This document shows, piece after piece, positions 3,008-25,634 of a stretch of DNA of 32,000 nucleotides. The position numbers and the translations under genes were made by a program. Under the pieces are notes generated by a model. That model saw only the letters and a list, made by a program, of their open reading frames with translations, was not told the DNA's origin and did not search any database. Origin of the DNA: Candidatus Saccharimonadota bacterium (GTDB taxonomy: Archaea; Micrarchaeota; Micrarchaeia; Micrarchaeales; Micrarchaeaceae); assembly GCA_963705375.1 (NCBI GenBank), contig OY970071.1, positions 120,001 to 152,000 of the forward strand, written 5' to 3'. Position 1 is the first letter of the stretch. The number at the start of each line of letters is the position of its first letter.

Positions 3008-3469
3008 ATGCCTAATCAGACAAAGCACCAAAAGGCACACGATAGAATTGCCGATAAGTCTGGGCCACCAGGTGCAGAAGAAGAACAAGACTTTAAGTAT
3101 GAGTATGGACGTAATGTGCCGCATCCGATAATAACTTCAGATGTACGCAAAATTGCCGAAACGATCTCGCGCGCCATGGGGCTTGCATTGTTTGAAGATT
3201 CCGGCTGCCTCTATCTTGTCCCTGAAGGGTCGAGCCCTACGTTACAAAATTACATCTTCATGGTAAGTGGCGAGGCCGGTAGGGGTGTGATAATGACCTC
3301 CTCTAACGGTGGTCCGAATGTGGCTCCAGAAAAGTTCGAAACATTTTTCAAAAATGTAGATGCTGTGCTAGAAGGGGAATTTGCTGCAGACTTCAACATA
3401 ACAGGAAACGCGAAAGGTACGGTTGTGATATGTCCTAAGATTAAATCCGAATTGCAGAACAAGGAGTAG
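3008..3469 (+). CDS. hypothetical protein, island paralog family V
   Basis: Clear paralog of 14777..15193. Shared blocks are ITSDVRKIA / ITSDARNVA, EDSGCLYLVPEGS / EDSNCLNLVPEGS, EAGRGVIM / EEGRGVVV and ADFNITGNAKGTVVI / ADFEIDGNANSIVVL. Confidence 0.65.
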   Translation: MPNQTKHQKAHDRIADKSGPPGAEEEQDFKYEYGRNVPHPIITSDVRKIAETISRAMGLALFEDSGCLYLVPEGSSPTLQNYIFMVSGEAGRGVIMTSSNGGPNVAPEKFETFFKNVDAVLEGEFAADFNITGNAKGTVVICPKIKSELQNKE

Positions 3470-5101: not shown

Positions 5102-6013
5102 TTAGCCCTGTAGAAATCCTATTGTCGACATAGAATTAATTTTCATATATCGGTAAATATTGTATACAATATCAATCATTTTCAGCTCTCTTCTTCGTAA
5201 ACGCAAAAGTCTGCTATGTAATTCACTCCCAAATTTCCTCTTTTCTACAAAATTCACTGTTTCTACCTTACTTCTTTGATGGTACTGTCGAATTGGAAAG
5301 TGCAGAAGTAACATTCTCCGGTACTTGCCCTTCATATTTAACCCAGATTTTACTGGCCTCAGAGGTATTATTGATTTACCACCTATTACTTCACGTACAA
5401 ATTCGTGGTTTGCCTCTGAATCATATCCTTTGTCTGCGGTTACGTTTCTTATCTCAACTAATTCGCTACTTGCCTCTACAAGCGGTTTAAAGTCGATAGT
5501 ATCGTGTCTTGGCACTTGTCTGGTTACTGATGCAATTATTGCCTGATTATTTGTGTCTACTGCGATAGAATGTTTCATGAATTTCCTACGTTTACTTAAT
5601 TCAACTCCAAATTCTGCCAGTCTTAACCTATAATAATAAGACATGTAGTTCTCACCGAATCCAGTTCCATCTACTCCGACATTCGCCGTTTTTGCCTCAA
5701 ATAATTGATACGTCTTAGACAAAAGGAATTCCAACACATATGCAGGTATCCTGCTAAGAAATTTCTGCAATGTTGTAAAATGCGGTACTGATTTTTCAAA
5801 TCGAAAATAAGTCCATAACTCCTTCAAGAGATCGGTTACATCACGATACGGTTTGTTCTCGTATTTCATCAACAATATTGCAACTGCATGTTGATATTGG
5901 GTATATGTTTTCTTTGAAAATTTTCCAGAATATGGCCTAAGCACCCGTTTCACTTCGCGAAACGCAATTTCTACAAATTTCTTATATCTAGAGTTCCAAT
6001 TATCTACTATCAT
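5102..6013 (-). CDS. DDE transposase, IS4/IS5 superfamily
   Basis: 303 aa containing VDGTG, ADKGYDSE and the Y-2-R-3-E-6-K signature (YHQRSKVETVNFVEK). TATAAA on the coding strand inside the palindrome GGGGTTTATACCCC lies about 35-40 nt upstream of the ATG. Confidence 0.9.
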   Translation of the reverse strand: MIVDNWNSRYKKFVEIAFREVKRVLRPYSGKFSKKTYTQYQHAVAILLMKYENKPYRDVTDLLKELWTYFRFEKSVPHFTTLQKFLSRIPAYVLEFLLSKTYQLFEAKTANVGVDGTGFGENYMSYYYRLRLAEFGVELSKRRKFMKHSIAVDTNNQAIIASVTRQVPRHDTIDFKPLVEASSELVEIRNVTADKGYDSEANHEFVREVIGGKSIIPLRPVKSGLNMKGKYRRMLLLHFPIRQYHQRSKVETVNFVEKRKFGSELHSRLLRLRRRELKMIDIVYNIYRYMKINSMSTIGFLQG

Positions 6014-6224: not shown

Positions 6225-7283
6225 GTGTTCAAACATAACTCAGATAAGGCCACTTCTGATGTGCAAGAGATTACTATTGGCAACGTTGCAATCTGTATTC
6301 TGAACAGTTCGAATGCTGAGATGCAATTGGCATTGGAGCACCATAACTATCGGCTTAAACATAGAGATATGGCCGTAGAATGTATTGAAGATGGACCACC
6401 CATAGGAGTTATCGGGCTCCCTGACAGCATATGTGGACAGTATGACCTTCATCATCAACATGTAGAAATAGACTCCTCAAAGTCGACAAAGGAAACCTTT
6501 GCGCACGAGTTGTACCACCACAGGCAACGCTTGTTCTTTGATTTCTTACAAAATGCGGGCTCGGCATTCTATGAGGCCGCTGCCTACTTTGCAGGTGCAG
6601 ACTATGCATATTTTTCTGGCAGAATGGGTAATCCAAACTACCTCGACGAGTCGGCAAGCGAAGAGATTCGGTTTGCGGTTATATCGAACTTATGCGCTCG
6701 TTTTCCCGAATCATTTACCTCAGGGCTGATAAGATCCGCTGTTGCGCATGCAGTAGAGAATTCGGAGGTGTTCTGCCGTGCTGTGCTTGAAGACGCCTCG
6801 AATATTATTCGGGCTACTGAAACCCAAGAACGTAAGACTGCATTTGTAGGAAACGTGATTGCGCTGCTTGCGTTCGCTGCGAATGACTTTGACTTCGACA
6901 AGACGTACGACGTGCTGGAGTCCACTCCAGACGAAGTGCTGGATTTCCTAGCCAACGCAAATCAAGAAAACATCGAGAAAGTAATCTGCATGGTGGATGT
7001 GATTTTTGGTATGAGTAAAGAAACACAAGAGCAAACAAACAAAGCGTTCAACGATGATGCATACCTTGTAGCAAATTTGCTATCAAAATCGATGCTGCTG
7101 AAAGTAAAAGAGTATGGCAAGTTTCTGCGCATCATTCCGAGCTGGTCGGAGGCCCCAGTAAAGGACCAATTGTTTGGGATTTACACCAAAGCAGACGAAC
7201 GCGTGGTAGTTCTTCCTGTAAAGGATGACCTTCTCTGCGGGCTAAAGCCCGCAGTATCTCATCACGCCGCGAGCGTCATCTGA
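6225..7283 (+). CDS. family M: ImmA/IrrE-like (COG2856-type) HExxH metallopeptidase-domain protein, 3' end replaced by an IS200-type insertion
   Basis: HELYH at codons 94-98, followed 19 residues later by EAAAYFAGADYAYFSG (resembles the E..An.FA motif of peptidase M78). Paralogous to 8130..9935 and 11462..12334. The last 22 codons read into the IS hairpin. Confidence 0.7.
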   Translation: MFKHNSDKATSDVQEITIGNVAICILNSSNAEMQLALEHHNYRLKHRDMAVECIEDGPPIGVIGLPDSICGQYDLHHQHVEIDSSKSTKETFAHELYHHRQRLFFDFLQNAGSAFYEAAAYFAGADYAYFSGRMGNPNYLDESASEEIRFAVISNLCARFPESFTSGLIRSAVAHAVENSEVFCRAVLEDASNIIRATETQERKTAFVGNVIALLAFAANDFDFDKTYDVLESTPDEVLDFLANANQENIEKVICMVDVIFGMSKETQEQTNKAFNDDAYLVANLLSKSMLLKVKEYGKFLRIIPSWSEAPVKDQLFGIYTKADERVVVLPVKDDLLCGLKPAVSHHAASVI

Positions 7284-7879
7284 CAGGATACGTCTTGCCT
7301 CCTGATGTAATTCTGTACCGTCTTCTCGTCGCGAGGCCCAACACTTCCGTTGCTGTATCCTGCACTCCAGAAGTGACCTTGCAGATACCGCAGCCTATGG
7401 TTAGGTATTTCCTTGAAAACCACATACGACGAATATCCCTTCAGCAGTTGTACTGCAGTTGCAATCGACATTGTATTTGGAATGCCTGTTTCGAGATGTA
7501 TGTGTGCGTAATCATCGCCAAATGACATTTCCTTTATTGAGATCTTGTACCTTTCTGCAACGTTGTAGAGGGCACCACGTATTGCCGCCACGGTTTTCGG
7601 GTTCTTGAACATCTTGTATCGGTACTTCGTAACGAAGACAAGGTGCTGGAAGTTGTATTGATGACCGACGCTGTCGGCAGATGGTTCTTTATTTGCAGCG
7701 GTTCCACTATTCATGTTATCACGTATCGGCAGTTTGCGGCGCAAATTTTTCCGTGCCGCGGCTGCCTTACGCAGAAATCTACAGGAAAAGTATTTCAGTA
7801 ACTGTGCAATTCATTCACGACCTAAAGGTCGTGGTATTCTTGCCCTAAGAATAAGATCCCTTCAGGACAGCAAAAGGCA
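7218..7879 (-). mobile_element. IS200/IS605-family element carrying only tnpA (boundaries approximate)
   Basis: Subterminal perfect hairpins CTGCGGGC-TAAA-GCCCGCAG (7235-7254) and CACGACC-TAAA-GGTCGTG (7816-7833) flank tnpA. The left end TGCCTTTTGC (reverse complement ending at 7879) resembles the TGCCTTACGG end of the second copy. Confidence 0.65.
7262..7714 (-). CDS. tnpA: IS200-type HUH/Y1 transposase TnpA
   Basis: FVTKYRYKMF, the HUH motif in YAHIHLE, and the C-terminal VQNYIRRQ tyrosine helix. The ORF track starts at 7744, but MNSGTA (7714) is the more likely start. Confidence 0.9.
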   Translation of the reverse strand: MNSGTAANKEPSADSVGHQYNFQHLVFVTKYRYKMFKNPKTVAAIRGALYNVAERYKISIKEMSFGDDYAHIHLETGIPNTMSIATAVQLLKGYSSYVVFKEIPNHRLRYLQGHFWSAGYSNGSVGPRDEKTVQNYIRRQDVSCQMTLAA

Positions 7880-8089
7880 TTTTTCAAAAAAGCATACCTG
7901 ATACTCAAAGACAACCTCAAGGACTTCAACATAATCAGAGAAAAATATGACTGGATAACAGTAAGCTCGAAAGAGCACAGCGCGTGAATTTGTAAAACTG
8001 AAAATAAAGTGGGCGGATTACCTAAAGGAAATGCCAACAAGATCCTGGAAGACTAGGCACTGTTGACGTGACGAACCCTGAAAGGTAGG

Positions 8090-8100
8090 TATAAGTATCT
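8090..8100 (+). promoter_or_regulatory. TATAAGTATCT promoter core for 8130..9935
   Basis: Exact 11-mer 30 nt upstream of the ATG. Confidence 0.65.
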
Positions 8101-8129
8101 GAAAAACAAAGGAAATATTTGGTCATCAA

Positions 8130-9935
8130 ATGCCAAGACCTAGGTCCATAAAACGGCAAGCAGAAGATGCTGAACAACAGATACACATAGGTATCGTGCA
8201 CTCTTGGTCAAAGAAGAACGAAGAACTCGCAAAGGAGGGGTGGGAAGTGCTGCAAGATGCGAGCAAAGCGTTCGTAGAAGAAAAGGCAAAAGAGCGGAAC
8301 ACCAGGAACGCATATATCCTCTCCAAAGCAGAAAAAGAAATGGATAGTGCGTTTGCGTATCTTGAAGATAGGGTGAAGCACGGCGGAGGTGACGGCCTGC
8401 TGCTTGAGCACGAACAGAAACCTAGACTTGAATTAGCTAAACTTCCGGACGACAAAAAGGGCGAATACAAGGACCAACGCATAACAATAGACCCGCGAAA
8501 GATGAAGGAAGGGACCATATTCCGGGAGATGTACCATTTCTGGCAGGGCATAGTCCTGCCGCTTTCACTGTACGAAGCGCCGGATCTTGCTGACGCTCCG
8601 CCGCAACTATGGAGGATGAAAAAGTTGCACAGAAATACAAGTGGAAATCCGGACTTCGTTGAGGCGGGGGCAGCCTTCGCCGAGGCGGACTACTTGTATT
8701 TTTCGGGCAGGATGGGCAACGTGAACTACCTTGACGAGCCGGTAAGCGAAAAAACCAAGCTTAAGCTTTCAGTGATTTCGCGAATGATTCCAGAGAATAC
8801 AGACCCAGAACTTCAAGACAGGTATCCAGAACTTCAGAATCAAAAATTATATTATAACATCGAGATGCGCCCTGAAACCTTCCTAAATATACTGGCTGAC
8901 AGGATAGACTCTGTGTTTAGGCATGCAGACAAAGACATAGCGGCGTTCTACAATGCGATAGTTGAGGACATAATGTCAGAGATTCAGGCAAACAGATCGG
9001 GTGACAAGAGCTTGGGTCGCATGACAGCAATCCCGAATCCGGGACGCCTTGCTGCGAATTTTATAGCAGACATGGCAGACGAGCATCTGAGTTTTGCGAT
9101 AGCCGCGCTTGCTTTTGCATCTACGGGCTTCGACATAGACCGAACGTATGCTGTGCTAGAGTCTGCTCCTGAAGAGGTGCTGAGGGCCATAGCCGGCACT
9201 AATCAAGAAAGAGTCGCTGAAGTCAAAGGGATAATTGGCCGCATACTTCTTTCCACGGGCTACGAAGCGGATGACCTCTCAAGCGAAACACCTGGAGGCA
9301 GCACATACCTTCTAAGGAAAGCGCTGGAGAACGCACCAGAGGGCCTTGACGCTGGTGGCTGTGTCATGCTGTCAACGCCAAAGGGGACGAAAAAGGGCCA
9401 GAAGACTCCTAGCGCTGCGGAAAATGAAGAACTAGCGCTTGAAGATATGGGCCTCTTAGAGGCATTGAAGAAAATGGATGCTGATTTTGATGCAGAACTA
9501 CAAGAAGCCGGGACTCCTTCTAAATGTGACTCATTGCACGCAGATGGGGCAAGGCCCGTGCAAGCGAAAATGATGCTAGACGACCCGTTGCTTAAAGAGT
9601 GGCAGGATATGGATGAGGACCTTAAGCCGCAGGCAATCGGAGAGCAAGAGTTAACTGATGCTCATCTGGCGAACGAAGCTCTGCTGAGGCCACATGATGT
9701 GCTTGATATGCAGGTAAAGATGGGAGAACCTGCTCTGGCAAATGAGGAAGCAATGGATCTTCAAGGACAAGACCTGAACGAGCTACTCAGGGCATTTGAT
9801 CTCATGGGTGATGGTTCAGAGATGCCCCTCGAAACAATACCTCCGACTGTTGCAGATGATGCCTCTGAAAGACAATCGGAAAAACTGACAAACTTGACCC
9901 AAAACAAACGAACATCTGACTCGCATCAGCAATGA
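8130..9935 (+). CDS. family M paralog with degenerate active site (REMYH) and a long acidic C-terminal tail
   Basis: Aligns with the other M proteins over FVEAGAAFAEADYLYFSGRMGNVNYLDEP and AALAFASTGFDIDRTYAVLESAPEEVL. The first His of HExxH is Arg. The last 200 aa or so are rich in D and E. Confidence 0.75.
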   Translation: MPRPRSIKRQAEDAEQQIHIGIVHSWSKKNEELAKEGWEVLQDASKAFVEEKAKERNTRNAYILSKAEKEMDSAFAYLEDRVKHGGGDGLLLEHEQKPRLELAKLPDDKKGEYKDQRITIDPRKMKEGTIFREMYHFWQGIVLPLSLYEAPDLADAPPQLWRMKKLHRNTSGNPDFVEAGAAFAEADYLYFSGRMGNVNYLDEPVSEKTKLKLSVISRMIPENTDPELQDRYPELQNQKLYYNIEMRPETFLNILADRIDSVFRHADKDIAAFYNAIVEDIMSEIQANRSGDKSLGRMTAIPNPGRLAANFIADMADEHLSFAIAALAFASTGFDIDRTYAVLESAPEEVLRAIAGTNQERVAEVKGIIGRILLSTGYEADDLSSETPGGSTYLLRKALENAPEGLDAGGCVMLSTPKGTKKGQKTPSAAENEELALEDMGLLEALKKMDADFDAELQEAGTPSKCDSLHADGARPVQAKMMLDDPLLKEWQDMDEDLKPQAIGEQELTDAHLANEALLRPHDVLDMQVKMGEPALANEEAMDLQGQDLNELLRAFDLMGDGSEMPLETIPPTVADDASERQSEKLTNLTQNKRTSDSHQQ

Positions 9936-9984
9936 TGGCTGACATATGTTTTGGCGCTTTTTGCAAAATAACAACAGCAGGTAG

Positions 9985-9999
9985 TAGCGCCTAGCGCTA
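9985..9999. terminator. small hairpin between convergent genes, next to oligo-T tracts
   Basis: TAGCGC-CTA-GCGCTA, with TTTTGGCGCTTTTTGC about 25 nt upstream (9947-9962). Lies between the 3' ends of 8130..9935 and 10044..11285. Confidence 0.3.
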
Positions 10000-10043
10000 T
10001 TTGAAATTTACGCTCCTCGTCTTCTCTGTGCTTTTTTCGGCGC

Positions 10044-11285
10044 TCATCGCCAGACATCCAAGCTTTCTGAGATTGCGTCTGCCTTGCTTGAACGCTTGTC
10101 GCGACGCGCACTTTTGCGGCTTGTCTGGCAGCCCTCTTCTTGATTGAGGCTGCAGTTGGCCCGTGTGCCGACACTTGAAGAGTCAGCATTCCAGGTGGAT
10201 GTGTGCGGCATTATGTATGTTGCGTTCATCCCATTTATTTCGGCATTGCTGTAGCACAGTTGCACTATGAAAGCGCCGACTGGAGGATTAGCGCTGCTCT
10301 GCCCTACGCTGCGCTTGCCGCTGCCCATGAAGCAGCCGGGCTGCATGACGTAAACGCCACGGTCCTCTCCGTAGTACAAGGCATGGTAATGCCCGAGCAG
10401 CAATAGGTGAGGTACACGTATGCCGTCGCATCCAGCCTCATGCAGCGGATCCACCAAACCGGCGAGCTCTTGGCCCGGATAGTCTGGGACATATGTGGCT
10501 GCACGCTTCCTACCGCCGTGCAGCAGGCGGATCGTTATGCCATGGCTGATCACATCTGCACTGATGTCGCCTAAATTCTTGAAATTGTCAACCTTCTCTT
10601 CAAGCATGGCAAGAGGGTTCACGCGTCCCTTCTCAAAAGAAACGTCGTGGTTTCCGCCTATTCCCCAGAACTCAAGCCGAGGATGTCTTGCCAGTGCTGC
10701 CGCAGCTATGTCTATCTGGCCCTCAACGTCAGTCTTCAAAAGATCGAACTCCTGCCCGTTGTATATGCCAATGCCGTCCACAATGTCTCCGGCAACGTAC
10801 ACAGGGTTTATCTTAAGCCTTTCAAGTTCGCTCATCACTTCATGGAAAGACCGTGAAAGGTGGAACGCGCTGCCAAAATGGAAGTCGCTGGCGAAGCCGA
10901 TTCGCAGGGTCCGCTCTTTACCATCAGGGCCGCTTATGAAGTGAACCTTGCCCTCCGCCTTGCCATCCGCGGTCACGACCTTTATGAAGTATGACGCCTC
11001 GCTACCGTCTTCAGGCTTGATGGACTCGACATCGACGCCGCTACCACGCAGCAAACCTATGCAAAACCCGACTTCCTCCGTGGTTATGCCTAGCCTATCA
11101 GCCAATTGCTCTGCGGTCTGCGTGTTTGTCTTCAAGATGGATGTGAGCCCGCCCAAGAGGCCCGCATCAGCAAAACGCACTTCGCCGTCTTCTGTTCGCG
11201 AGCGCAAGCCTATGTGCGCTAGCGCGGAATAGTTTACTGTCTCTGCTTTGTGTTTGCTGCCTTTGTCGACACGTGCGTCCTCCAT
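10044..11285 (-). CDS. calcineurin-like metallophosphoesterase with N-terminal winged-helix domain
   Basis: Phosphoesterase motifs in order: SDFHFG, AGDIVDG, GGNHD, LLHGG, LLGHYH. The N-terminal TAEQLADRLGITTEEVGFCIGLLRGSG looks like an HTH. Confidence 0.8.
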   Translation of the reverse strand: MEDARVDKGSKHKAETVNYSALAHIGLRSRTEDGEVRFADAGLLGGLTSILKTNTQTAEQLADRLGITTEEVGFCIGLLRGSGVDVESIKPEDGSEASYFIKVVTADGKAEGKVHFISGPDGKERTLRIGFASDFHFGSAFHLSRSFHEVMSELERLKINPVYVAGDIVDGIGIYNGQEFDLLKTDVEGQIDIAAAALARHPRLEFWGIGGNHDVSFEKGRVNPLAMLEEKVDNFKNLGDISADVISHGITIRLLHGGRKRAATYVPDYPGQELAGLVDPLHEAGCDGIRVPHLLLLGHYHALYYGEDRGVYVMQPGCFMGSGKRSVGQSSANPPVGAFIVQLCYSNAEINGMNATYIMPHTSTWNADSSSVGTRANCSLNQEEGCQTSRKSARRDKRSSKADAISESLDVWR

Positions 11286-11461
11286 ATGCCCCTAATATAA
11301 ATCACCAAAGTCCCTTTTATTCGTTTCCTCCAACGACAAGCATGCAGAGTTCCCTTAGAAAAGAATAAATAAGTTAGATGTGATATATCCGTTGCCTCAT
11401 TTTCAGAATCGACGCCACGTTTGCATAAGGCAGCATCATCACAATAGATTTATTCCTGTGG

Positions 11462-12334
11462 CTAGAATCGGTCGCTGCTCTCGCCATCACGCCTCAGGTA
11501 CGTCATCAGCTTGCGGGAATAAGCCGCTTCCACGACCCCTATGGCTTTTTCTGCGTCTAAGGCGAGACCTGCCATCGAAGACAGCGTCTCTTTCGGAGTC
11601 GAATTCAGCACACAATATGCTCTGTCTACGTCAAAGTTGTTAGCAATAAACGCGAGTGCAGCGATGCTTCTGGCTATCCACGAGATACTAGGGGCGCCCA
11701 TTGCGCCATTAAGGGTACTGGCCAACCTTAAGAATAGAATGTTCGGTTCATTTCCGGAACACTCCAGCACTGCCGATGCCAATTTTTTCGCGACCTTGAT
11801 ATAATCCGATGTGATATCTGACGAATCTGTCTTCTTATGTCTCAAAACGCGCATGACGCTTCTGTCCTCATAGATCTCCGAAATCACTCCGAGTGCCTCG
11901 TCTCCGCTGACCTGTCCGTCTGGAATGCTCGCACCAGGTACTGTGCACGAGAAATAGCCGCAGTCTGCCCCTGCAAAGAATGCCGCAGCCTCTGTGAAGA
12001 GGTCGAAGGAAAAGGAGCAGCTCGCAGTATATGCGGGGTGCTTGAATCTGCCCTCGCAAAGATGGTGCAGTTCGTGACCAATCACGCTCTGGCAGCAGAG
12101 TCTTGTTTGCGTCTTTGATAAGTCAATAGTGATTTTCCCATTTCTTGAATCATAAATGCCATATATGTCTCCGGGCAGCTTCGCGAATGTCATTGCTGGC
12201 TTCTCGTCGAGCCACTCATCGGGCATCCGGTGGTTGTGGTGCGCGACTGCTATGTCTAGCATCTCTTGCGCCTGCACCTTAGACGGGCAGCTATGCTCAG
12301 CAGGACTTCCTGTTCTGAACAGCTGCATATGCAC
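11462..12334 (-). CDS. family M: ImmA/IrrE-like HExxH metallopeptidase-domain protein
   Basis: HELHH followed by TEAAAFFAGADCGYFS. The N-terminal AVAHHNHRM block and the C-terminal AALAFIANNFDVDRAYCVLNSTPKETL block are both shared with 6225..7283. Confidence 0.75.
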   Translation of the reverse strand: MHMQLFRTGSPAEHSCPSKVQAQEMLDIAVAHHNHRMPDEWLDEKPAMTFAKLPGDIYGIYDSRNGKITIDLSKTQTRLCCQSVIGHELHHLCEGRFKHPAYTASCSFSFDLFTEAAAFFAGADCGYFSCTVPGASIPDGQVSGDEALGVISEIYEDRSVMRVLRHKKTDSSDITSDYIKVAKKLASAVLECSGNEPNILFLRLASTLNGAMGAPSISWIARSIAALAFIANNFDVDRAYCVLNSTPKETLSSMAGLALDAEKAIGVVEAAYSRKLMTYLRRDGESSDRF

Positions 12335-13959: not shown

Positions 13960-14654
13960 ATGCTGGGCGATAGGGTGATCTCCACTAAACCAATAACAGA
14001 GGAAAAGGAGACGAGAAACGCTAAGCTCATGGAAATACTGAAAGAAAACCCAGAAGCCAATAGGCTATGGGCCAAGTTGGAAGGAATCCCTGAAGGCAGT
14101 AAATACAAAATAATAAACTTTATATTCGTGGAGATACCGGACACAAGATTCTTTCATCCTAGAAGCCCTCTAAACGAAGAATGGAAAATGTTCTATGGGA
14201 ATTCATTGGATGACGCGCGATGCGAAGCGAGGCGCAGAACAGCAGGCATGCCACGAGATACGGCATGGTGCACAGCAGGAGGCACAATACTGATGCTGCT
14301 ATGTTAAGGGGATGGTATGTGGCCTTTGAAGCGGCACTTAAGGCAGCAATGGACGCAACCGAAGAAATAGCAGGCTGGGATGCATTGCTGCGAATAGGCG
14401 TTGGGGCGACTCCGGAAATTATAAAGGATGCTGTATGGGACTCTGCTCTGATAGCAGGATACCTTTTGGTAGAGGATGCATTGGATTTCAGCAGATACAA
14501 GGAAGATATCGGCAAGTTTGTGCTATCTTGCAAGGAAGTCTGGCAGAAAGGCTACGTACGACTATGTGATGTTGGTGGCACGCCTTTTGGCGGTGCACAA
14601 TGTATCTGTGTCAGGGCACCGGTGGGTTTGAGAACGCAGAGGAACCGAGCTTGA
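13960..14654 (+). pseudogene. family W gene split by a 1-nt frame change near 14280-14295
   Basis: ORFs 13960..14307 and 14220..14654 overlap in different frames. Together they reproduce the full W architecture: LWAKLEGIPEGSKYKIINFIFVEIP, then FFHPRSPLNEEW, then CKEVWQKGY. Confidence 0.65.
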
Positions 14655-14776
14655 AATAACTGCTTACTAAGCAACTTTGGCAGAGGGCTTTCTAAAAACA
14701 AGCTTTACAGAATCACGAACATTCCGCAACAAACTGCATAAAGAGAAAAATGTATATATTTGGAAAGCAGAAGATA

Positions 14777-15193
14777 ATGCGTGGTACTGTGTCTTCTAGA
14801 ACAAAAAAAGAGAGCAAGGCAAAAGCACCCAAAGAGGACGAGTATGTCATGGAATTCGTCCATCAAGGCGGGCCCGATCTTGCCATAACGTCCGATGCCC
14901 GTAACGTGGCTAAACTGTTATCAAATTTTACTGGACTGTCCGTGCACGAGGACTCGAACTGCCTAAACCTTGTTCCAGAAGGGTCAAGAAATAAATTATG
15001 GCCGATCTTTACGATAAGCGCAGAAGAGGGCAGAGGTGTTGTTGTCTCGTTTTTTGGTTGGAACGGTCCTGCATCAGAACAGAGGGCCATTCTTCGAAAT
15101 GTTGAAAATGCGCTGAATGCTCTAAGTGCTGATTTTGAAATAGATGGAAACGCGAACAGCATAGTGGTTCTACAGCCAAGACACGGAGGCTGA
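14777..15193 (+). CDS. hypothetical protein, family V
   Basis: Paralog of 3008..3469. TGTATATATTT at 14751-14761 sits inside the longer tracked ORF, so ATG 14777 (MRGTVSS) is the likely start. Confidence 0.65.
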   Translation: MRGTVSSRTKKESKAKAPKEDEYVMEFVHQGGPDLAITSDARNVAKLLSNFTGLSVHEDSNCLNLVPEGSRNKLWPIFTISAEEGRGVVVSFFGWNGPASEQRAILRNVENALNALSADFEIDGNANSIVVLQPRHGG

Positions 15194-15310: not shown

Positions 15311-15958
15311 ATGCCATTCTGGAACAAATCGCCTGAAGAGAAAAAAGCAGAAGCAAATGCCCAACTAGAACAGATGCTGAGAATAACCCCTGAGGAATGC
15401 AACGATAAGCTCAGAGACGTGCTGAAAGAATGCTCAAAGAAGGAAATCAAAAAGGCATATGGACTTTGGAAGGACCTGGAAGTGGACAGCATCCCTTACG
15501 ATAACAGGTGTGAAGTGAGTAGGTTCATATTTGCGGTGATCCCAAAAGCGCTTTTATTCAAATCAGAAGCACGCACCAGAAGCGGAGAAGAAATGTTCAG
15601 TGGAGATGTGCAAAAAACCTATGTTGTACCTGCCGAGATAACAAGCGAAGAGAAGGATGCCGTACGGAATGTGGCAGTGGAAAGTAATCGGTGGTATGCG
15701 TGGAGCATGGCAGGATACTGCGCACAAGATGCAGTATGGACAACAATACGGAGCACTTGCCCTGATGGGTTTAGCAGATTGAGCATAGACGCAGTCCTCG
15801 ATGCGGATTCAATGGCCGGATATCTGACATTGGCAGATCTGGACGGTCAGGCTTTCCCGAACAAGGCAGCGTACGCCGAGCATCTTATGGCATGCTGGGA
15901 GGTATGGCAGAAGGGCTTATGGCGGGAACGTTTGTGGGGCATTCTGCGATCTGATTAA
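15311..15958 (+). CDS. hypothetical protein, family W
   Basis: GLWKDLEVDSIPYDNRCEVSRFIFAVIP core and C-terminal CWEVWQKGLW. Confidence 0.7.
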   Translation: MPFWNKSPEEKKAEANAQLEQMLRITPEECNDKLRDVLKECSKKEIKKAYGLWKDLEVDSIPYDNRCEVSRFIFAVIPKALLFKSEARTRSGEEMFSGDVQKTYVVPAEITSEEKDAVRNVAVESNRWYAWSMAGYCAQDAVWTTIRSTCPDGFSRLSIDAVLDADSMAGYLTLADLDGQAFPNKAAYAEHLMACWEVWQKGLWRERLWGILRSD

Positions 15959-15989: not shown

Positions 15990-16420
15990 GCCGAAATTGG
16001 ATCTATTTCTGCTTCCATTCCATTTTAGTGAAATCGTACGAGTTCATGTTGGCAAAATGTGCAATTCCATAACAACGGAATGGAAATCCAATCTTGCAAA
16101 AGCATACGTTCCGCTTTTTTGGAAAACAGGCCGTTCTGGTTAAGCAACCGGTATTGAACGCGAAACATGCCCAAAGATCTTAGCGATTCCTCGAAGGACC
16201 TTTTTTAGCTCAATTTCATGGAACGTGCACAGCAAGTTTCCATGATTTCGGAACGCAGTCTCATAGCACAGGAATATACGCCAGTACGTCCTTCCCTCGA
16301 CAAAAAGTGCCCTTATTTTGCGCTATGCTGCACGATTCAATACACATATGGTATATTCTCCCTTTGCCGTATTGAAGCAGCTGGGAGCGAGTGTGAGAGA
16401 TTCTAACATTGATTAAGAAA
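15990..16420 (-). pseudogene. possible decayed DDE transposase fragment
   Basis: Minus-strand frames give protein-like pieces broken by stops and frame changes (GKDVLAYIPVL, YETAFRNHGNLLCTFHEIELKKVLRGIAKIF, NQNGLFSKKAERMLLQDWISIPLL). YETAFRN weakly recalls the RWxIExxFrxxK block of IS4-type transposases. Confidence 0.25.
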
Positions 16421-16446: not shown

Positions 16447-17244
16447 CTATCTGCGTAGTAGCTCCCTTGTGGCCTGTTTAGCATCCTCTAAAGCTGCAAC
16501 CCACATCGGCGCAGTTGTGCCATCAAAAGGTATGTCATGCGCTTCTTCCAGGGTACTGCCGTTATTTCTCAGAGTTTCAGGATTTGATAGTAAGAGAGAG
16601 GGCTGTAAGAACTGTGCAATATGTATGTCGTGAGATATGATGCGCACAATGGCATACGTGGACTCCTCAGTCATAGTATTACAGTCCAGTATTGTCCAAA
16701 CAAGGAAGTCAAACATACTTGGCTGTAACAATGCAGGCAGCAACTCTAACCCGTCTTTCTCCCAATGCTTAAACCCGAACGTCAGAAGGGCATTCTTACG
16801 TTCATCTGGGAGCTGTCTTTCGTCAAGCAACTCCCAAAGCTTAAGTGCTTCTTGGTTTTCTGCCACAGTCTTATTCATGACATAGTTGCGCCTAATTGGC
16901 AGATTAGGGCCTATGTCTATGAGATAATGGTTCAAAGGTACGTAAATATCGGACTCCATTCCGCCGAAATACTTCACGGCAGAGAGGGCGTAACTTGCGT
17001 AGAACGAAGAATGTGGGTAATCTACCAGAGTGCGCCGGATGGCTGCTTCTACTTCTTCCAGAGTATTCCGCTTATCAGAAAGATCATACATTGCGCTGAT
17101 TGCTGCCTTGGCCACGTGCTTATTGCCCTTGTCTATTTCGCTTCTAATAAATTCCATCCATTCTTCGCGCAGGCTTTCTGGTGCCAAAGCAGCGACTTCT
17201 TTGAAGAGTGCGCTGTGCTTCTGTATATCTTTTTGAATGTACAT
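16447..17244 (-). CDS. hypothetical protein, family N (N-terminal domain only, lacks the W-type C-terminal half)
   Basis: Aligns with the first 260 aa or so of 21682..22914 (LAPESLREEWMEFIRSEIDKGNK versus LAPERLRGEWVEFIKSEIGTGNK; ALKLWELLDERQLPDERKNALL versus AMELWKVLEEKHVPNERKKNIL). Confidence 0.7.
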   Translation of the reverse strand: MYIQKDIQKHSALFKEVAALAPESLREEWMEFIRSEIDKGNKHVAKAAISAMYDLSDKRNTLEEVEAAIRRTLVDYPHSSFYASYALSAVKYFGGMESDIYVPLNHYLIDIGPNLPIRRNYVMNKTVAENQEALKLWELLDERQLPDERKNALLTFGFKHWEKDGLELLPALLQPSMFDFLVWTILDCNTMTEESTYAIVRIISHDIHIAQFLQPSLLLSNPETLRNNGSTLEEAHDIPFDGTTAPMWVAALEDAKQATRELLRR

Positions 17245-19433: not shown

Positions 19434-20876
19434 CTACGCGCTTGATGCCGCTTTTGGTAGGTTGAGTGCTTTGACTGCCGCTATGGCTTCGGCATTGCTA
19501 AATCCGAGTTCTTTGAGCTTTGCGGCAATTATCCTCTCCATCATTAGTTGTTATTCCGAAAGCCCGTGTAGAAGTCACTTTTATTGCATTTTCAAGAGCA
19601 AGGTCTGCTTTGTGTCTCTCCCCGCGCTCCATAAACTGCTTTCTTTCGGCCAGAAGTTGCACGACACCGTCTATTGCTAGAGAGGTACATTCCTCTCTCG
19701 GTACTTCTAAAACTCTGAGCGCCATCATCACATTTGGCTGAATGCCGTCTATCTTTCCTTCCTCCATAAGGTGTACAATTCCCCCTAGCAGCTGTCGTCT
19801 CGCGTCTTCCAAGGTCAGTCTGAAAGTTTTGAATATGTGTGAAGCCTCGTCTATTCGTGCGCTGTTCATGAGCTCTCCAAATTGCGCTATTGCCAGAGGT
19901 ATCACTTCGGGTATTGAGGCATCTATCTCCTTTCTTGTTAGTTCAAGATCGGATATGACATTTGCGGCTTTGGATATCTCCCCGTCGTTTACAGACTCCG
20001 AAACTGTTTCTAACACATATTTTCGCGGTATTCCGAAAATAGCGGCCATTTTTAGGGCGCCCTCTCCACGCCCTGCCTTTACACTCTTTCTAACTTCTTT
20101 CATCGCATCGGGTTTGAAAGATTCGAGCTCCTCAATTGTTAGTTTAAAATTCAAGGCTGTTTCTAAGGCATCATGTGCCCAAAGACTACCTTTAACCAGA
20201 AGTTCTCCAACTTCTACCGTCACCTCTTCTATTAGTTTATCGTCTATATCCTCCCTTTTAAGTCCGTACTTCAAGAATATTCTTGAGGCTTCCAGTGCGC
20301 TCTTCTGATCCACAAGCGCTTGAACTACTGCCAGAACCTTTGATTTTGGCAGAGAATGGTCTGAGCCTATAAGGGAACTCTTTTATGGCTTCGACTTTGT
20401 CTACTCCATCTGCCACAAGCTCATCAAATAACTTTTTTGCATCAACCCTTGTTAAGTCAAAGATAGGAGCGACCATTTCATACGCGTTCAGCCATATTCC
20501 TTCTTCTTTGCTCATCATTTTTATCTGCGCTTTCGCATCCATACGCAAAGCAAGCTGCTCTATCAACACGGGCATGAAGGATTCTGCGTCATTTCTTGTT
20601 AAATGATGGTATCTTTTAGGCCTAACCCTGCTTTTGTGGCATCAAACAAATCTCCTTCCTTTATGAGAGTCCCGATCGCCTTCACTACCGCCGCTTTCTT
20701 CTTTGGGCTGGCAGATTGAGATCCAAGGTGCTCTTTTCTACTTCCGTCTGACTTATACCTGTTCGCTGTTCTAAATCTAGAAGCGCTGCAAATTGTTTTA
20801 CTTCTTTTTCTACAACTTCGTCCCTATTCGAGTTTTTTGACGTAGCAGGCAAAGAACCACTTATTATCATGTTCAA
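19434..20876 (-). pseudogene. family R helical-repeat protein gene broken by at least four frame changes
   Basis: ORFs 20685..20876, a 20599..20715 frame, 20258..20575 (extendable upstream), 19498..20313 and a 19434..19545 frame each continue the same repeat pattern (for example PKKKAAVVKAIGTLIKEGDLFDATKA, LTRNDAESFMPVLIEQL, PKSKVLAVVQALVDQKSALEASRIF, AFGITTND then RIIAAKLKELGFSNAEAIAAVKAL). Confidence 0.6.
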
Positions 20877-21007: not shown

Positions 21008-21496
21008 TCAAATGACGGATACATCTGTGCGAAGAAATCTTGCATCTCCAATTATTGCAACTACTTTCTCATCGGGTATTTCAAAGGCGGAGGCTACGTA
21101 GCAGACTGCCTTCTTCCATCCAATCAAGTCTTTACTCACTTTATCCACAAAACCTGGAAGCTGCGCAATCACCTCTGGTTGGAAAGGTTCAACTTCCTCT
21201 TTTGTTAGTTTGAAAAGTGTGACTGCGTCTGCAGCACAATATAACTTTCCTTTTATCAAAAGCACTCCGACTGCTTTTGTTACTTCTGGTTTGAAGAAGC
21301 CTATCTCATCGTTCATTCCAAAAACAGTGATCGCGTCCCGGGCAATGCGCGGATAACCCCTCTCCAAAAATGTTCTAACCTCAAATCGGCCTGCGTCTTC
21401 TTTTAATCCGTGTTTATCAAGATAGTCGAGATTCCATTTTTCTCCTACACCTATCGGGCCTTGTTGCGGCTTTGATTTGTTCGTTGCGTGCTGCAT
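21008..21496 (-). CDS. family R helical-repeat protein (3-4 repeats)
   Basis: ARDAITVFGMNDEIGFFKPEVTKAVGVLLIKGKLYC and AADAVTLFKLTKEEVEPFQPEVIAQL follow the repeat consensus of 27646..29481. Confidence 0.7.
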   Translation of the reverse strand: MQHATNKSKPQQGPIGVGEKWNLDYLDKHGLKEDAGRFEVRTFLERGYPRIARDAITVFGMNDEIGFFKPEVTKAVGVLLIKGKLYCAADAVTLFKLTKEEVEPFQPEVIAQLPGFVDKVSKDLIGWKKAVCYVASAFEIPDEKVVAIIGDARFLRTDVSVI

Positions 21497-21681: not shown

Positions 21682-22914
21682 TCACAAAGCAGCAGGCGCT
21701 TTGGCAAATACGTATAGCTGATCTTCAAGATCACAGCAAGGAGTAAAGCCGTTACGCACGGCTTCATTCCATAGCTCTTTTGCATAAGAGAGGTGCCTGT
21801 CATCAGCGGACACGAGGTCTCCGATTAAGGTGAATTTGCACATGAGTGCAGCACACTCCGAAACGTCGTTAACAGCATCCAGTATGGCGGCATCACTTGC
21901 TTCATAAGCATATGGATTTGTATTAGCATCTGCACGCAGGCTGACCTCTGCAATAGCGTCATCTTCTGCTTCGCTCATAACGTCATAAACTGCTTCCTCT
22001 GTCGCATTGCATGCCAGTTGATGGACAAAATCCATTACCGTAGACCGCGATGCCGCCTGTGCCACTGACTGGGCTACGATGGTCGCTTCTTTCCGTTTTG
22101 CGTTCCACATGGCGTTCCGGTTTGCACCTACTGGCGCATCAAATGGCACAGCACTTATTGCCGCACCAAGTGCAGCAAATTGCGCCGAGGCCAACGTACC
22201 GCCATAGTGCGTGATCCACTCCTCCTTCGGCGCGCATTGCGGACGGAAGAAAGAAGTAGTTGGGATGTCATACGATATGAATTTTATAACAAGGTACTTG
22301 ACAGAGTCCGGTACGTTTGCAGTCTCCAGCATCATCCATAATTTGAGCATATCTGGCTTTAGTAGCGAAGGCAGCAGCTCAAATCCTGATTCATTCAAAT
22401 GATCAAATACAAAACCCAGAATATTTTTCTTACGTTCATTAGGGACGTGTTTTTCTTCGAGCACTTTCCATAGCTCCATGGCTCCTTGGCTTCCTTCCAC
22501 GGCCTTATGTATAAGATAGTTGCGCTTGATTAGCTCATCTGTGCTCGTGTTTACAAGATAGTCTCTTCGATGTTCGGCGTCTGCCGGCTCACTCGCAGTA
22601 TCGTTTGGGGAAGAAGAGCCACGCAGTAGCACATACTTATCGAACTCCAAACTTCCACTGAAATAGTTAACAGCAGAAAAGACATAGCTCGCATCGAAAG
22701 ATTGAGTCTCTGTAAACCAACTCCTGATTACTGCCTCTGCCTCTTCTGGAGGATTTCGCATCGCATTGATTGCAGCCAAGACCCTATCCTTATTACCAGT
22801 TCCTATCTCGCTTTTAATAAATTCGACCCACTCTCCGCGCAGCCTTTCCGGTGCTAAATTCACGATTTCTTTGATACGCTCGTTACCTTTTTGAGTATCA
22901 TTATGACCGTTCAT
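21682..22914 (-). CDS. family N domain fused to family W domain (410 aa)
   Basis: The N-terminal 260 aa or so are paralogous to 16447..17244. The remainder carries W signatures (LVIKFISYDIPTTSFFRPQCAPKEEWITHYGG, then AKELWNEAVRNGF). Confidence 0.75.
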   Translation of the reverse strand: MNGHNDTQKGNERIKEIVNLAPERLRGEWVEFIKSEIGTGNKDRVLAAINAMRNPPEEAEAVIRSWFTETQSFDASYVFSAVNYFSGSLEFDKYVLLRGSSSPNDTASEPADAEHRRDYLVNTSTDELIKRNYLIHKAVEGSQGAMELWKVLEEKHVPNERKKNILGFVFDHLNESGFELLPSLLKPDMLKLWMMLETANVPDSVKYLVIKFISYDIPTTSFFRPQCAPKEEWITHYGGTLASAQFAALGAAISAVPFDAPVGANRNAMWNAKRKEATIVAQSVAQAASRSTVMDFVHQLACNATEEAVYDVMSEAEDDAIAEVSLRADANTNPYAYEASDAAILDAVNDVSECAALMCKFTLIGDLVSADDRHLSYAKELWNEAVRNGFTPCCDLEDQLYVFAKAPAAL

Positions 22915-25510: not shown

Positions 25511-25634
25511 ACATCTTCAAACAGGACTGCTCTGAAAAATGTGAGCGGACACTAGCAACGTTTGATTGGAAGCGCTAATTACCCGGCAGCTAGGGAATAT
25601 TTTAAAATGGTTCAGCTCTCAATCTAAACTAGCA

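Follow-up and report, generated by a model that had tools for sequence, protein, structure and literature searches.

The 32,000-nucleotide stretch analyzed here (contig OY970071.1, positions 120,001 to 152,000; hereafter the window) carries three paralogous genes coding for zincin-like proteins, named M1, M2 and M3 below, together with a metallophosphoesterase gene, PE, placed between M2 and M3. M1 (6225..7283, forward strand; 352 aa from a GTG start) keeps an intact HELYH motif, M2 (8130..9935, forward strand; 601 aa) has the degenerate site REMYH, and M3 (11462..12334, reverse strand; 290 aa) is the most canonical copy. PE (10044..11285, reverse strand; 413 aa) joins a winged helix to a calcineurin-like phosphodiesterase domain similar to that of DP1, the small subunit of the DNA polymerase PolD. 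An IS5-family transposase gene (5102..6013, reverse strand), whose closest plasmid-borne relatives are archaeal, lies just upstream of M1, and an open reading frame (ORF) for an IS200/IS605 Y1 transposase (tnpA; 7262..7744, reverse strand) lies between M1 and M2 and overlaps the stop region of M1. An initial annotation of this DNA had placed the four ORFs at these positions and described their motifs and paralogy; all four were recovered there, and the ORF check and BLASTP comparisons confirmed the description.

The three M proteins are true paralogs whose similarity is far beyond chance, with BLASTP E values of 1e-29 for M1 and M2, 2e-21 for M1 and M3 and 4e-14 for M2 and M3 at mutual identities of 25-31%. 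In M1 the HELYH motif occupies residues 94-98 (nt 6504-6518) and is followed by the glutamate block EAAAYFAGADYAYF at residues 117-130 (nt 6573-6614), and in M3 HELHH at residues 87-91 (nt 12062-12076) is followed by EAAAFFAGADCGYF at residues 115-128 (nt 11951-11992), so placed that the Glu comes 19 residues after the second His in M1 and 24 residues after it in M3. The corresponding elements of M2 are REMYH at residues 132-136 (nt 8523-8537), in which the first His is replaced by Arg, and EAGAAFAEADYLYF at residues 178-191 (nt 8661-8702). The Glu block, E(A)(A/G)A.FA.AD..YF, is thus common to the three proteins at aligned positions, and so is a C-terminal block, IA(A/L)LAF..(N/G)FD.D(K/R).Y.VL.S.P.E.L, found at residues 212-239 of M1 (nt 6858-6941), 324-351 of M2 (nt 9099-9182) and 224-251 of M3 (nt 11582-11665). 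The motifs and the BLASTP scores bear out the earlier view of three zincin-like paralogs of the HExxH...E type, which may be regarded as locally duplicated and strongly diverged copies, the duplication presumably having taken place in situ.

The two forward-strand copies depart from the canonical form in different ways. M2 contains insertions and a tail of about 200 aa in which Asp and Glu account for 21.5% of residues 396-600 versus 9.8% for Lys and Arg, and it retains both the Glu block and the C-terminal block. The missing first zinc ligand and the acidic tail had been recognized from the outset, and together with the insertions they suggest that M2 is most likely a non-catalytic derivative, that is, a pseudoenzyme, with a tail that is probably disordered. 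M1, flanked by the IS5 transposase gene and the IS200 tnpA ORF, has an atypical C-terminal extension of 80 aa that runs into the IS200 element, its last 22 nt overlapping the tnpA ORF. The database gene call of M1 begins at Met49, and the GTG at 6225 is required to keep helix alpha1, a helix that has homologous counterparts in M2 and M3 and is modelled with confidence in the latter. Since a start at Met49 would drop this conserved helix, GTG 6225 is to be preferred as the start, unless M1 is damaged.

These irregularities can also be read as signs of decay. M1-M3 would then be remnants of gene duplication that have become, or nearly become, pseudogenes without current function, in a region ridden with insertion sequences (IS). 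The position of M1 between IS5 and IS200, its need for a GTG start, its aberrant C-terminal extension and the zinc ligand lost from M2 agree with such a reading, as do a frameshifted neighbour at 13960-14654 and a split M copy (P0005) on a related contig, L003. However, each of the three ORFs (290-601 aa) runs through without interruption, M3 is fully canonical, and the family-invariant residues and the C-terminal block are kept at only 25-31% mutual identity, which indicates long-term purifying selection. We regard general decay of the three copies as improbable.

An exhaustive search of 1.84 billion representative proteins with a profile hidden Markov model (HMM) of the three window paralogs returned 12 matches: the three window proteins, seven genuine relatives (P0005, P0006 and P0008-P0012; 202-320 aa, all metagenomic) and two artefacts, which were rejected as a translated tandem repeat of 7571 aa (P0004) and a repeat protein of 1737 aa (P0007). 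An eighth relative of 400 aa was found by reading contig L003. HExxH is kept in 9 of these 11 family members, the exceptions being M2 and the split copy P0005, which lacks the N-terminal half, and the Glu of the EAGAYF block is invariant in the alignment of all 11. The same alignment shows the C-terminal block, in the form AIAxLAFAAxxFDxxxTxxVLxSxPxEIL, to be conserved family-wide, in agreement with the initial annotation, which had noted it as an addition to the domain of the M78 (ImmA/IrrE) peptidases. Further searches hardly extended the family. A word-indexed search of 5.8 billion proteins, a method insensitive for this family, recovered the query alone and, with the family profile, P0012 in addition; pattern scans with two sub-alignments found zero further members in 185,579 GTDB species genomes and JGI metagenomes; and tblastn of M1 and M3 against phage and plasmid collections gave no match. 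The M proteins thus most likely constitute, as judged from their sequences, a very rare and previously undescribed archaeal family of about 300 aa. One of the relatives, P0008, for which the index of contigs gives a carrier of over 1 Mb, may be a fourth and more canonical M copy, either elsewhere on the 1.2-Mb contig of the window or in a sister genome.

Scanned as single sequences against Pfam, NCBIfam, PADLOC and PHROGs, M1-M3 yielded nothing meaningful, a weak match of M1 to phrog_19616 (E 0.004) being the sole item. AlphaFold2 prediction from the three paralogs alone gave a predicted local distance difference test score (pLDDT) of 46, and the 10-sequence alignment gave a usable model of M3 with a pLDDT of 72 and a predicted TM-score (pTM) of 0.78. 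This model consists of helix alpha1, three short strands (47-50, 59-62 and 67-70) and an all-helical C-terminal half. HELHH (87-91) lies inside helix 78-97 and E115 inside helix 108-130, with pLDDT of about 85-92 in this part and about 90 in the core and the C-terminal block, so the edge strand, the HExxH helix and the third-ligand helix of a zincin-type topology are all represented. The N-terminal half would accordingly be arranged as a gluzincin-type core, composed of helix alpha1, a beta-hairpin with the edge strand, the HExxH helix and the Glu helix, whose invariant Glu probably serves as the third zinc ligand, and the C-terminal half would form a family-specific helical domain holding the conserved block.

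Comparison of the M3 model with known structures by Foldseek revealed mostly zincins among the better-scoring matches, with probabilities up to 0.98-1.00, along with scattered unrelated matches of low probability. PprI/IrrE came first in the PDB (probability 0.98, E 0.06), and jannalysin/abylysin, ACE2, M61, neutral protease (thermolysin-like), BepA, ArdC and SPRTN were also matched; in BFVD the matches comprised SprT-like, M48, IrrE-N-like and lethal factor proteins. At the level of profiles, DUF5700 (PF18958, 'putative zinc dependent peptidase') was the only curated model matched repeatedly. This family, on which no literature was found, was matched weakly over the strands and the HExxH helix by 3 of the 11 members (best E 8.9e-5), namely the 400-aa member of L003 (22.5 bits), P0006 (14.8) and P0010 (13.1), all below the gathering threshold of 25; M1-M3 themselves gave no match to it. 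One member of the family matched the NCBIfam SprT model (E 0.0014), and projannalysin was the best match of the family profile among PDB sequences (E 0.8). The assignment to zincins is therefore built on motifs and on fold and profile signals that are consistent and individually insignificant, and the M proteins are best regarded as a minimal, gluzincin-like family not described before that has a C-terminal domain of its own. M1 and M3 keep all predicted zinc-binding and catalytic residues and, on this prediction of zinc binding and of peptidase activity, would most likely be soluble peptidases dependent on zinc.

The initial annotation had gone further and identified the M proteins as ImmA/IrrE-like proteases of family M78, and this identity was not supported. 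Peptidase_M78 (PF06114) gave no match to M1-M3 at E<=1 or to the 11 family members at E<=10, and the NCBIfam ImmA/IrrE models gave none in the family. Of the proposed relationship to known metallopeptidases, weak similarity to the putative metallopeptidase DUF5700 and a weakly matched zincin fold remained. For comparison, phage M78 proteases were gathered with a consensus query and ten loci were fetched. Alignment of the M family with a 9-sequence phage M78 alignment by hhalign reached 74% probability over 47 columns, covering the strands and HExxH; only at a relaxed threshold did the collinearity with M78 run from alpha1 over the strands and HExxH as far as the Glu helix (E-x-x-A). With single-sequence templates, E. 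coli SprT scored 28% (68 columns, including alpha1) and LoiP (M48) 4.7%, and the ten M78 proteases ranged from 0.6 to 31%. The M78-specific homology suggested by the top fold match to PprI was rejected, as SprT scores inside the M78 range; and since M78 is no better than SprT as a single-sequence template, the M family is not demonstrably ImmA/IrrE.

The features that the M proteins do have in common with M78/COG2856 proteases are the HExxH motif of M1 and M3 followed by a Glu 19-24 aa later in an E-x-x-A context, which is general to gluzincins and not specific to M78, and the succession from alpha1 through a beta-hairpin and the HExxH helix to the Glu helix. The M proteins differ in their length of about 300 aa with an extra C-terminal helical domain, compared with about 160 aa for COG2856 (PMC2701414), and in having no adjacent or fused helix-turn-helix (HTH) domain of the Xre type, no integrase and no prophage context. 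COG2856 proteases occur in operon with, or fused to, Xre-type HTH proteins (PMC2701414). The control phage M78 loci matched this published association, an HTH or repressor gene being found immediately upstream of the protease in four of the five best-annotated loci, three of which then carried an integrase.

Other zincins resemble the M family in part. Projannalysin and proabylysin (PDB 4jix and 4jiu), the minigluzincins related to M48/M56, are likewise archaeal and soluble and present a minimal HExxH and Glu scaffold, and Foldseek aligned them with M3 at probabilities of 0.89-0.96 over 77-97 residues with a root-mean-square deviation of about 4 A, all of these matches being statistically insignificant. 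They are, however, single-domain zymogens of about 105-112 aa, whereas the M family adds a C-terminal domain and most of its members carry long insertions between HExxH and the Glu. Of the named classes that M3 matched by fold in BFVD, the SprT/Wss1/SPRTN group was the most frequent. SprT-type enzymes use a third His ligand (HExxHx5H) and often contain a zinc ribbon; the M family, in contrast, has the invariant Glu and no conserved third His.

The second component of the locus, PE, passed the Pfam Metallophos_2 model with 32 bits against a cutoff of 27 and contains all the motifs expected of a metallophosphoesterase (SDFHFGS, AGDIVDG, GGNHD, LLHGG and GHYHA), which are invariant in an alignment of 12 family members. 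Its N-terminal winged helix (about residues 47-88, nt 11022-11147), located by alignment with homologs, corresponds to their HTH_11/HTH_5 region, HTH_11 being detected in 4 and HTH_5 in 2 of the 12 members within the aligned N-terminal region. The fusion of a winged helix to the phosphoesterase, already proposed in the initial annotation, is therefore a family-wide property. The relatives form eleven clusters of about 330-370 aa with 37-45% identity to PE at 66-81% coverage, under source names such as 'metallophosphoesterase family protein [Candidatus Micrarchaeota archaeon]' and 'predicted phosphodiesterase/biotin operon repressor'; tblastn of PE against phage and plasmid collections gave no match. 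The PE of the window is the most divergent member, with extra termini and without conserved motifs such as FQDGDNEYCxRRGLTGPNG.

The region of PE from AGDIVDGIGIYNGQ to GGNHD matches the phosphodiesterase domain of PolD DP1, with E values of 1.5e-6 to 3e-5 for the DP1 structures 5ihe and 6knb in the PDB, and the PolD small-subunit model was its best NCBIfam match (E 4.5e-18 over a partial stretch). PE lacks the OB fold and the N-terminal domain of DP1 and scores 65 bits against equivalog cutoffs of 425-993. By its sequence, PE belongs, as a divergent copy, to a conserved family of archaea that is separate from the M family, combines a winged helix with a DP1/Mre11-like phosphodiesterase domain and presumably functions as a DNA-directed nuclease or phosphodiesterase.

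We examined whether M genes and PE genes stay together in other genomes. One PE homolog (contig L008, whose protein carries the NCBI label Micrarchaeota) is encoded about 2 kb from a ribosomal protein operon, and another is surrounded by genes of nucleotide metabolism and other cellular functions on a 47-kb contig from sample ERZ1426817. No M gene was detected near the PE homologs of L008 and L009 with the family HMM, or in the third context, for which the gene table only was used. A gene for a PhoU-domain protein is found divergently just upstream of the PE homolog in L008 (8856-9803, reverse strand) and in L009 (3132-4148, reverse strand), where the protein has an added AbrB/MazE domain; this conserved neighbour of both sequenced PE-homolog contexts is absent beside the PE of the window.

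Conversely, the M homologs with recognizable neighbours are found in archaeal and mostly housekeeping surroundings. P0009 neighbours rpoH and the RNA polymerase operon, in the same sample as the PE homolog P0015 and on a different contig; P0005 is within 10 kb of genes for TFIIB, the proteasome and a KH-domain protein; P0010 is placed between RIO-kinase-like and ThiI-like ORFs and P0012 adjoins an ORF resembling tyrosyl-tRNA synthetase, these being assignments made by eye from translations; and P0006 adjoins a transposase-like ORF. In none of the M-homolog contexts examined was there an integrase, a PE of the DP1-like type or an HTH gene beside the M homolog. On contig L006 an M homolog is found 36 bp downstream of a RIO-kinase-like gene; together with the phosphatase gene that follows an M homolog on contig L007 (see below), this may represent a recurring link to phosphoesterases or phospho-signalling. 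The functional pairing of a protease with an HTH-phosphoesterase, proposed in the initial annotation, is thus not kept in other genomes, co-occurrence of the two genes being absent from the contexts examined.

In our judgement, the locus is probably best explained by the expansion, specific to this lineage, of a rare gluzincin-like family of archaea not described before, beside a divergent copy of an unrelated family of winged-helix, DP1-like phosphodiesterases, in which case the placement of PE between M2 and M3 would reflect no conserved association. Several observations speak against this explanation. On the side of the zincin assignment, no Foldseek match reached E <= 0.001, TM-scores were low (0.2-0.4, or 0.2-0.6 over the PDB and BFVD matches), and the M family passes no curated profile. 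On the side of the neighbourhood, the M-homolog contexts number about ten in all, most of them on contigs shorter than 2.5 kb; M3 and PE are co-directional neighbours with the highest GC content at third codon positions (GC3) in the window (0.58 and 0.61, other genes 0.33-0.54); and on contig L007 (55-2044) a gene for a PPP-type metallophosphoesterase lies 88 bp downstream of the M homolog P0011, in the same orientation. Two adjacencies of an M gene and a metallophosphoesterase gene in about ten contexts exceed our chance expectation, if on thin numbers, and the shared GC3 together with the L007 adjacency hints at a non-random link between protease and phosphoesterase that mere coincidence of neighbours leaves unexplained. 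The phosphatase of L007 (PF00149, E 2.5e-26) carries the motifs GDLHGD, GDYVDRG and RGDHE, is Ser/Thr-phosphatase-like and contains no HTH; it was rejected as a PE homolog on account of its PPP-type motifs and the lack of BLASTP similarity.

Such a link could be sought in an anti-repressor mechanism, in which M78-type M proteases would cleave the winged helix of PE, either releasing and activating the phosphodiesterase or de-repressing a mobile element or conflict system. The first rank of PprI/IrrE among PDB folds and the collinearity with M78 from alpha1 to the Glu helix agree with it, as do the position of M3 176 bp upstream of PE in the same orientation, their shared high GC3, the IS elements close by and the order of genes in L007. 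Against it stand the missing M78 profile match in 11 of 11 members and the equal closeness of SprT, and no Xre-type HTH is adjacent or fused to the M proteins, the winged helix of PE being the only HTH in the window, while four of five control phage loci have one. Moreover, PE homologs occur without M genes in three contexts, two judged by HMM and one by its gene table, M homologs occur in housekeeping contexts without integrase, PADLOC defence models gave no match, and the phosphatase of L007 belongs to an unrelated subfamily without HTH. A TATA-like TTTATATT, read from the sequence directly upstream of the PE start, suggests that PE has its own promoter. An anti-repressor role of the M proteins appears quite unlikely on these grounds.

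Repressor cleavage would not be needed if M3 and PE, possibly with M2, were a horizontally co-acquired cassette in which the zincin acts together with a DNA-directed phosphodiesterase. By analogy with SprT/Wss1 and Mre11-type nucleases, such a pair might serve in the removal of DNA-protein adducts and end processing, or in defence. The high GC3 shared by M3 and PE is compatible with co-acquisition, although it may instead reflect expression level or chance. Prominence of SprT-like folds in BFVD, the SprT match of one family member, the complete set of catalytic motifs in the DP1/Mre11-like domain of PE and the appearance of PE as a divergent, extra copy without family motifs such as FQDGDNEYC are in line with the cassette, as is the second succession of M and Metallophos genes in L007. 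The adjacency is nevertheless limited to two loci with phosphoesterases of different subfamilies, SprT-type proteases have a third His where the M family has a Glu, and neither evidence for a DNA-binding domain in the M proteins nor a match to defence models was obtained. We hold this cassette to be unlikely. A more elaborate version, which we would put forward as a long shot, makes M3 and PE a co-acquired two-gene module of a small-genome (DPANN-like) archaeon in which the new zincin would proteolytically control a DP1/Mre11-like nuclease tethered through its winged helix, with M2 as a dead decoy or adaptor bearing a DNA-mimicking acidic tail and the pair of M and PPP genes in L007 as a sister arrangement. 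If true, the logic of such a module would resemble that of ImmA/ImmR with the effector fused to the DNA-binding target, and the L007 pair would be part of a broader partnership of zincins and metallophosphoesterases.

The explanation we prefer, a local expansion of a rare family beside an unrelated phosphodiesterase gene, is set in a window in which, beyond two IS200 tnpA genes, the IS5 transposase gene, genes for a methyltransferase and an alcohol dehydrogenase, a TFIIB fragment and a tRNA-Arg, hardly anything has a match in Pfam. The second tnpA (29953-30495) differs from the one beside M1, and the window ORFs that were scanned included no integrase. Several lineage-specific orphan families are expanded. 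The 20-kb contig L003 is partly syntenic with the window; it encodes a membrane protein that shares 59% identity with a product of the window, and two M genes are found on it, of which one is the split copy P0005. The window thus bears the marks of a variable island of an archaeal chromosome, rich in IS elements and orphan genes, with paralog expansion and gene decay; the archaeal setting proposed at the outset is supported. To judge from the PE homolog labelled Micrarchaeota by NCBI and from the 1.2-Mb size of the contig, the archaeon is probably DPANN-like.

A number of further observations were made in this island. The IS5 transposase gene, with a GC of 0.36, is an outlier in the direction opposite to M3 and PE. 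An orphan family with FFxP...W and EVWQKGY motifs and no Pfam match has about four copies in the window (13960-14654; 15311-15958; 16447-17244, reverse strand; and 21682-22914, reverse strand) and four in L003 (13633-17263), in both cases near M genes; the copy at 13960-14654 is split over two frames, the cause being either a frameshift or an error in sequencing. Intergenic DNA at 16100-16330 is conserved with L003 (17969-18200), the first ~70 nt being roughly 90% identical by eye and the mean column identity 80% over a 362-column alignment, while the flanking proteins are 35-59% identical. This stretch has no Rfam match and no evident conserved ORF and is a candidate non-coding RNA or regulatory element.

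Related and internally repetitive orphans are encoded at 19498-20313 (reverse strand), 21008-21496 (reverse strand), 27637-29481 (forward strand) and 27573-29231 (reverse strand). The 614-aa product of 27637-29481 matches those of the 19498-20313 and 21008-21496 genes at several offsets, and the opposite-strand ORFs are repeat-like. At 26760-27263 (reverse strand), about 1 kb away from tRNA-Arg(CCG) (25633-25708, forward strand), the only tRNA gene in the window, an ORF of 167 aa encodes no more than a partial TFIIB repeat (E 0.0013), with 46% identity to the complete TFIIB of L003 across 65 aa; this ORF may represent a TFB paralog that has been truncated. The orphan ORFs at 14750-15193 and 3008-3469 are paralogous, with 43% identity over 107 aa.

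The outcome of our analysis is a candidate new protein family and not a new system. As the pairing of the protease with an HTH-phosphoesterase is not conserved, this locus does not provide an archaeal ImmA/ImmR-like switch, and the residual link between M proteins and metallophosphoesterases, seen in two loci and in shared GC3, is worth revisiting as more genomes of this lineage become available. Provided that the assignment holds, the M family is an extremely rare zincin-like family, with only about ten clusters at 50% identity among 1.84 billion representatives, and is apparently confined to poorly sampled archaea. It would extend the minimal gluzincins modestly and could give rise to a new Pfam family, distinguished by a C-terminal domain of its own and, in this genome, by a local triplication that includes a probable pseudoenzyme.

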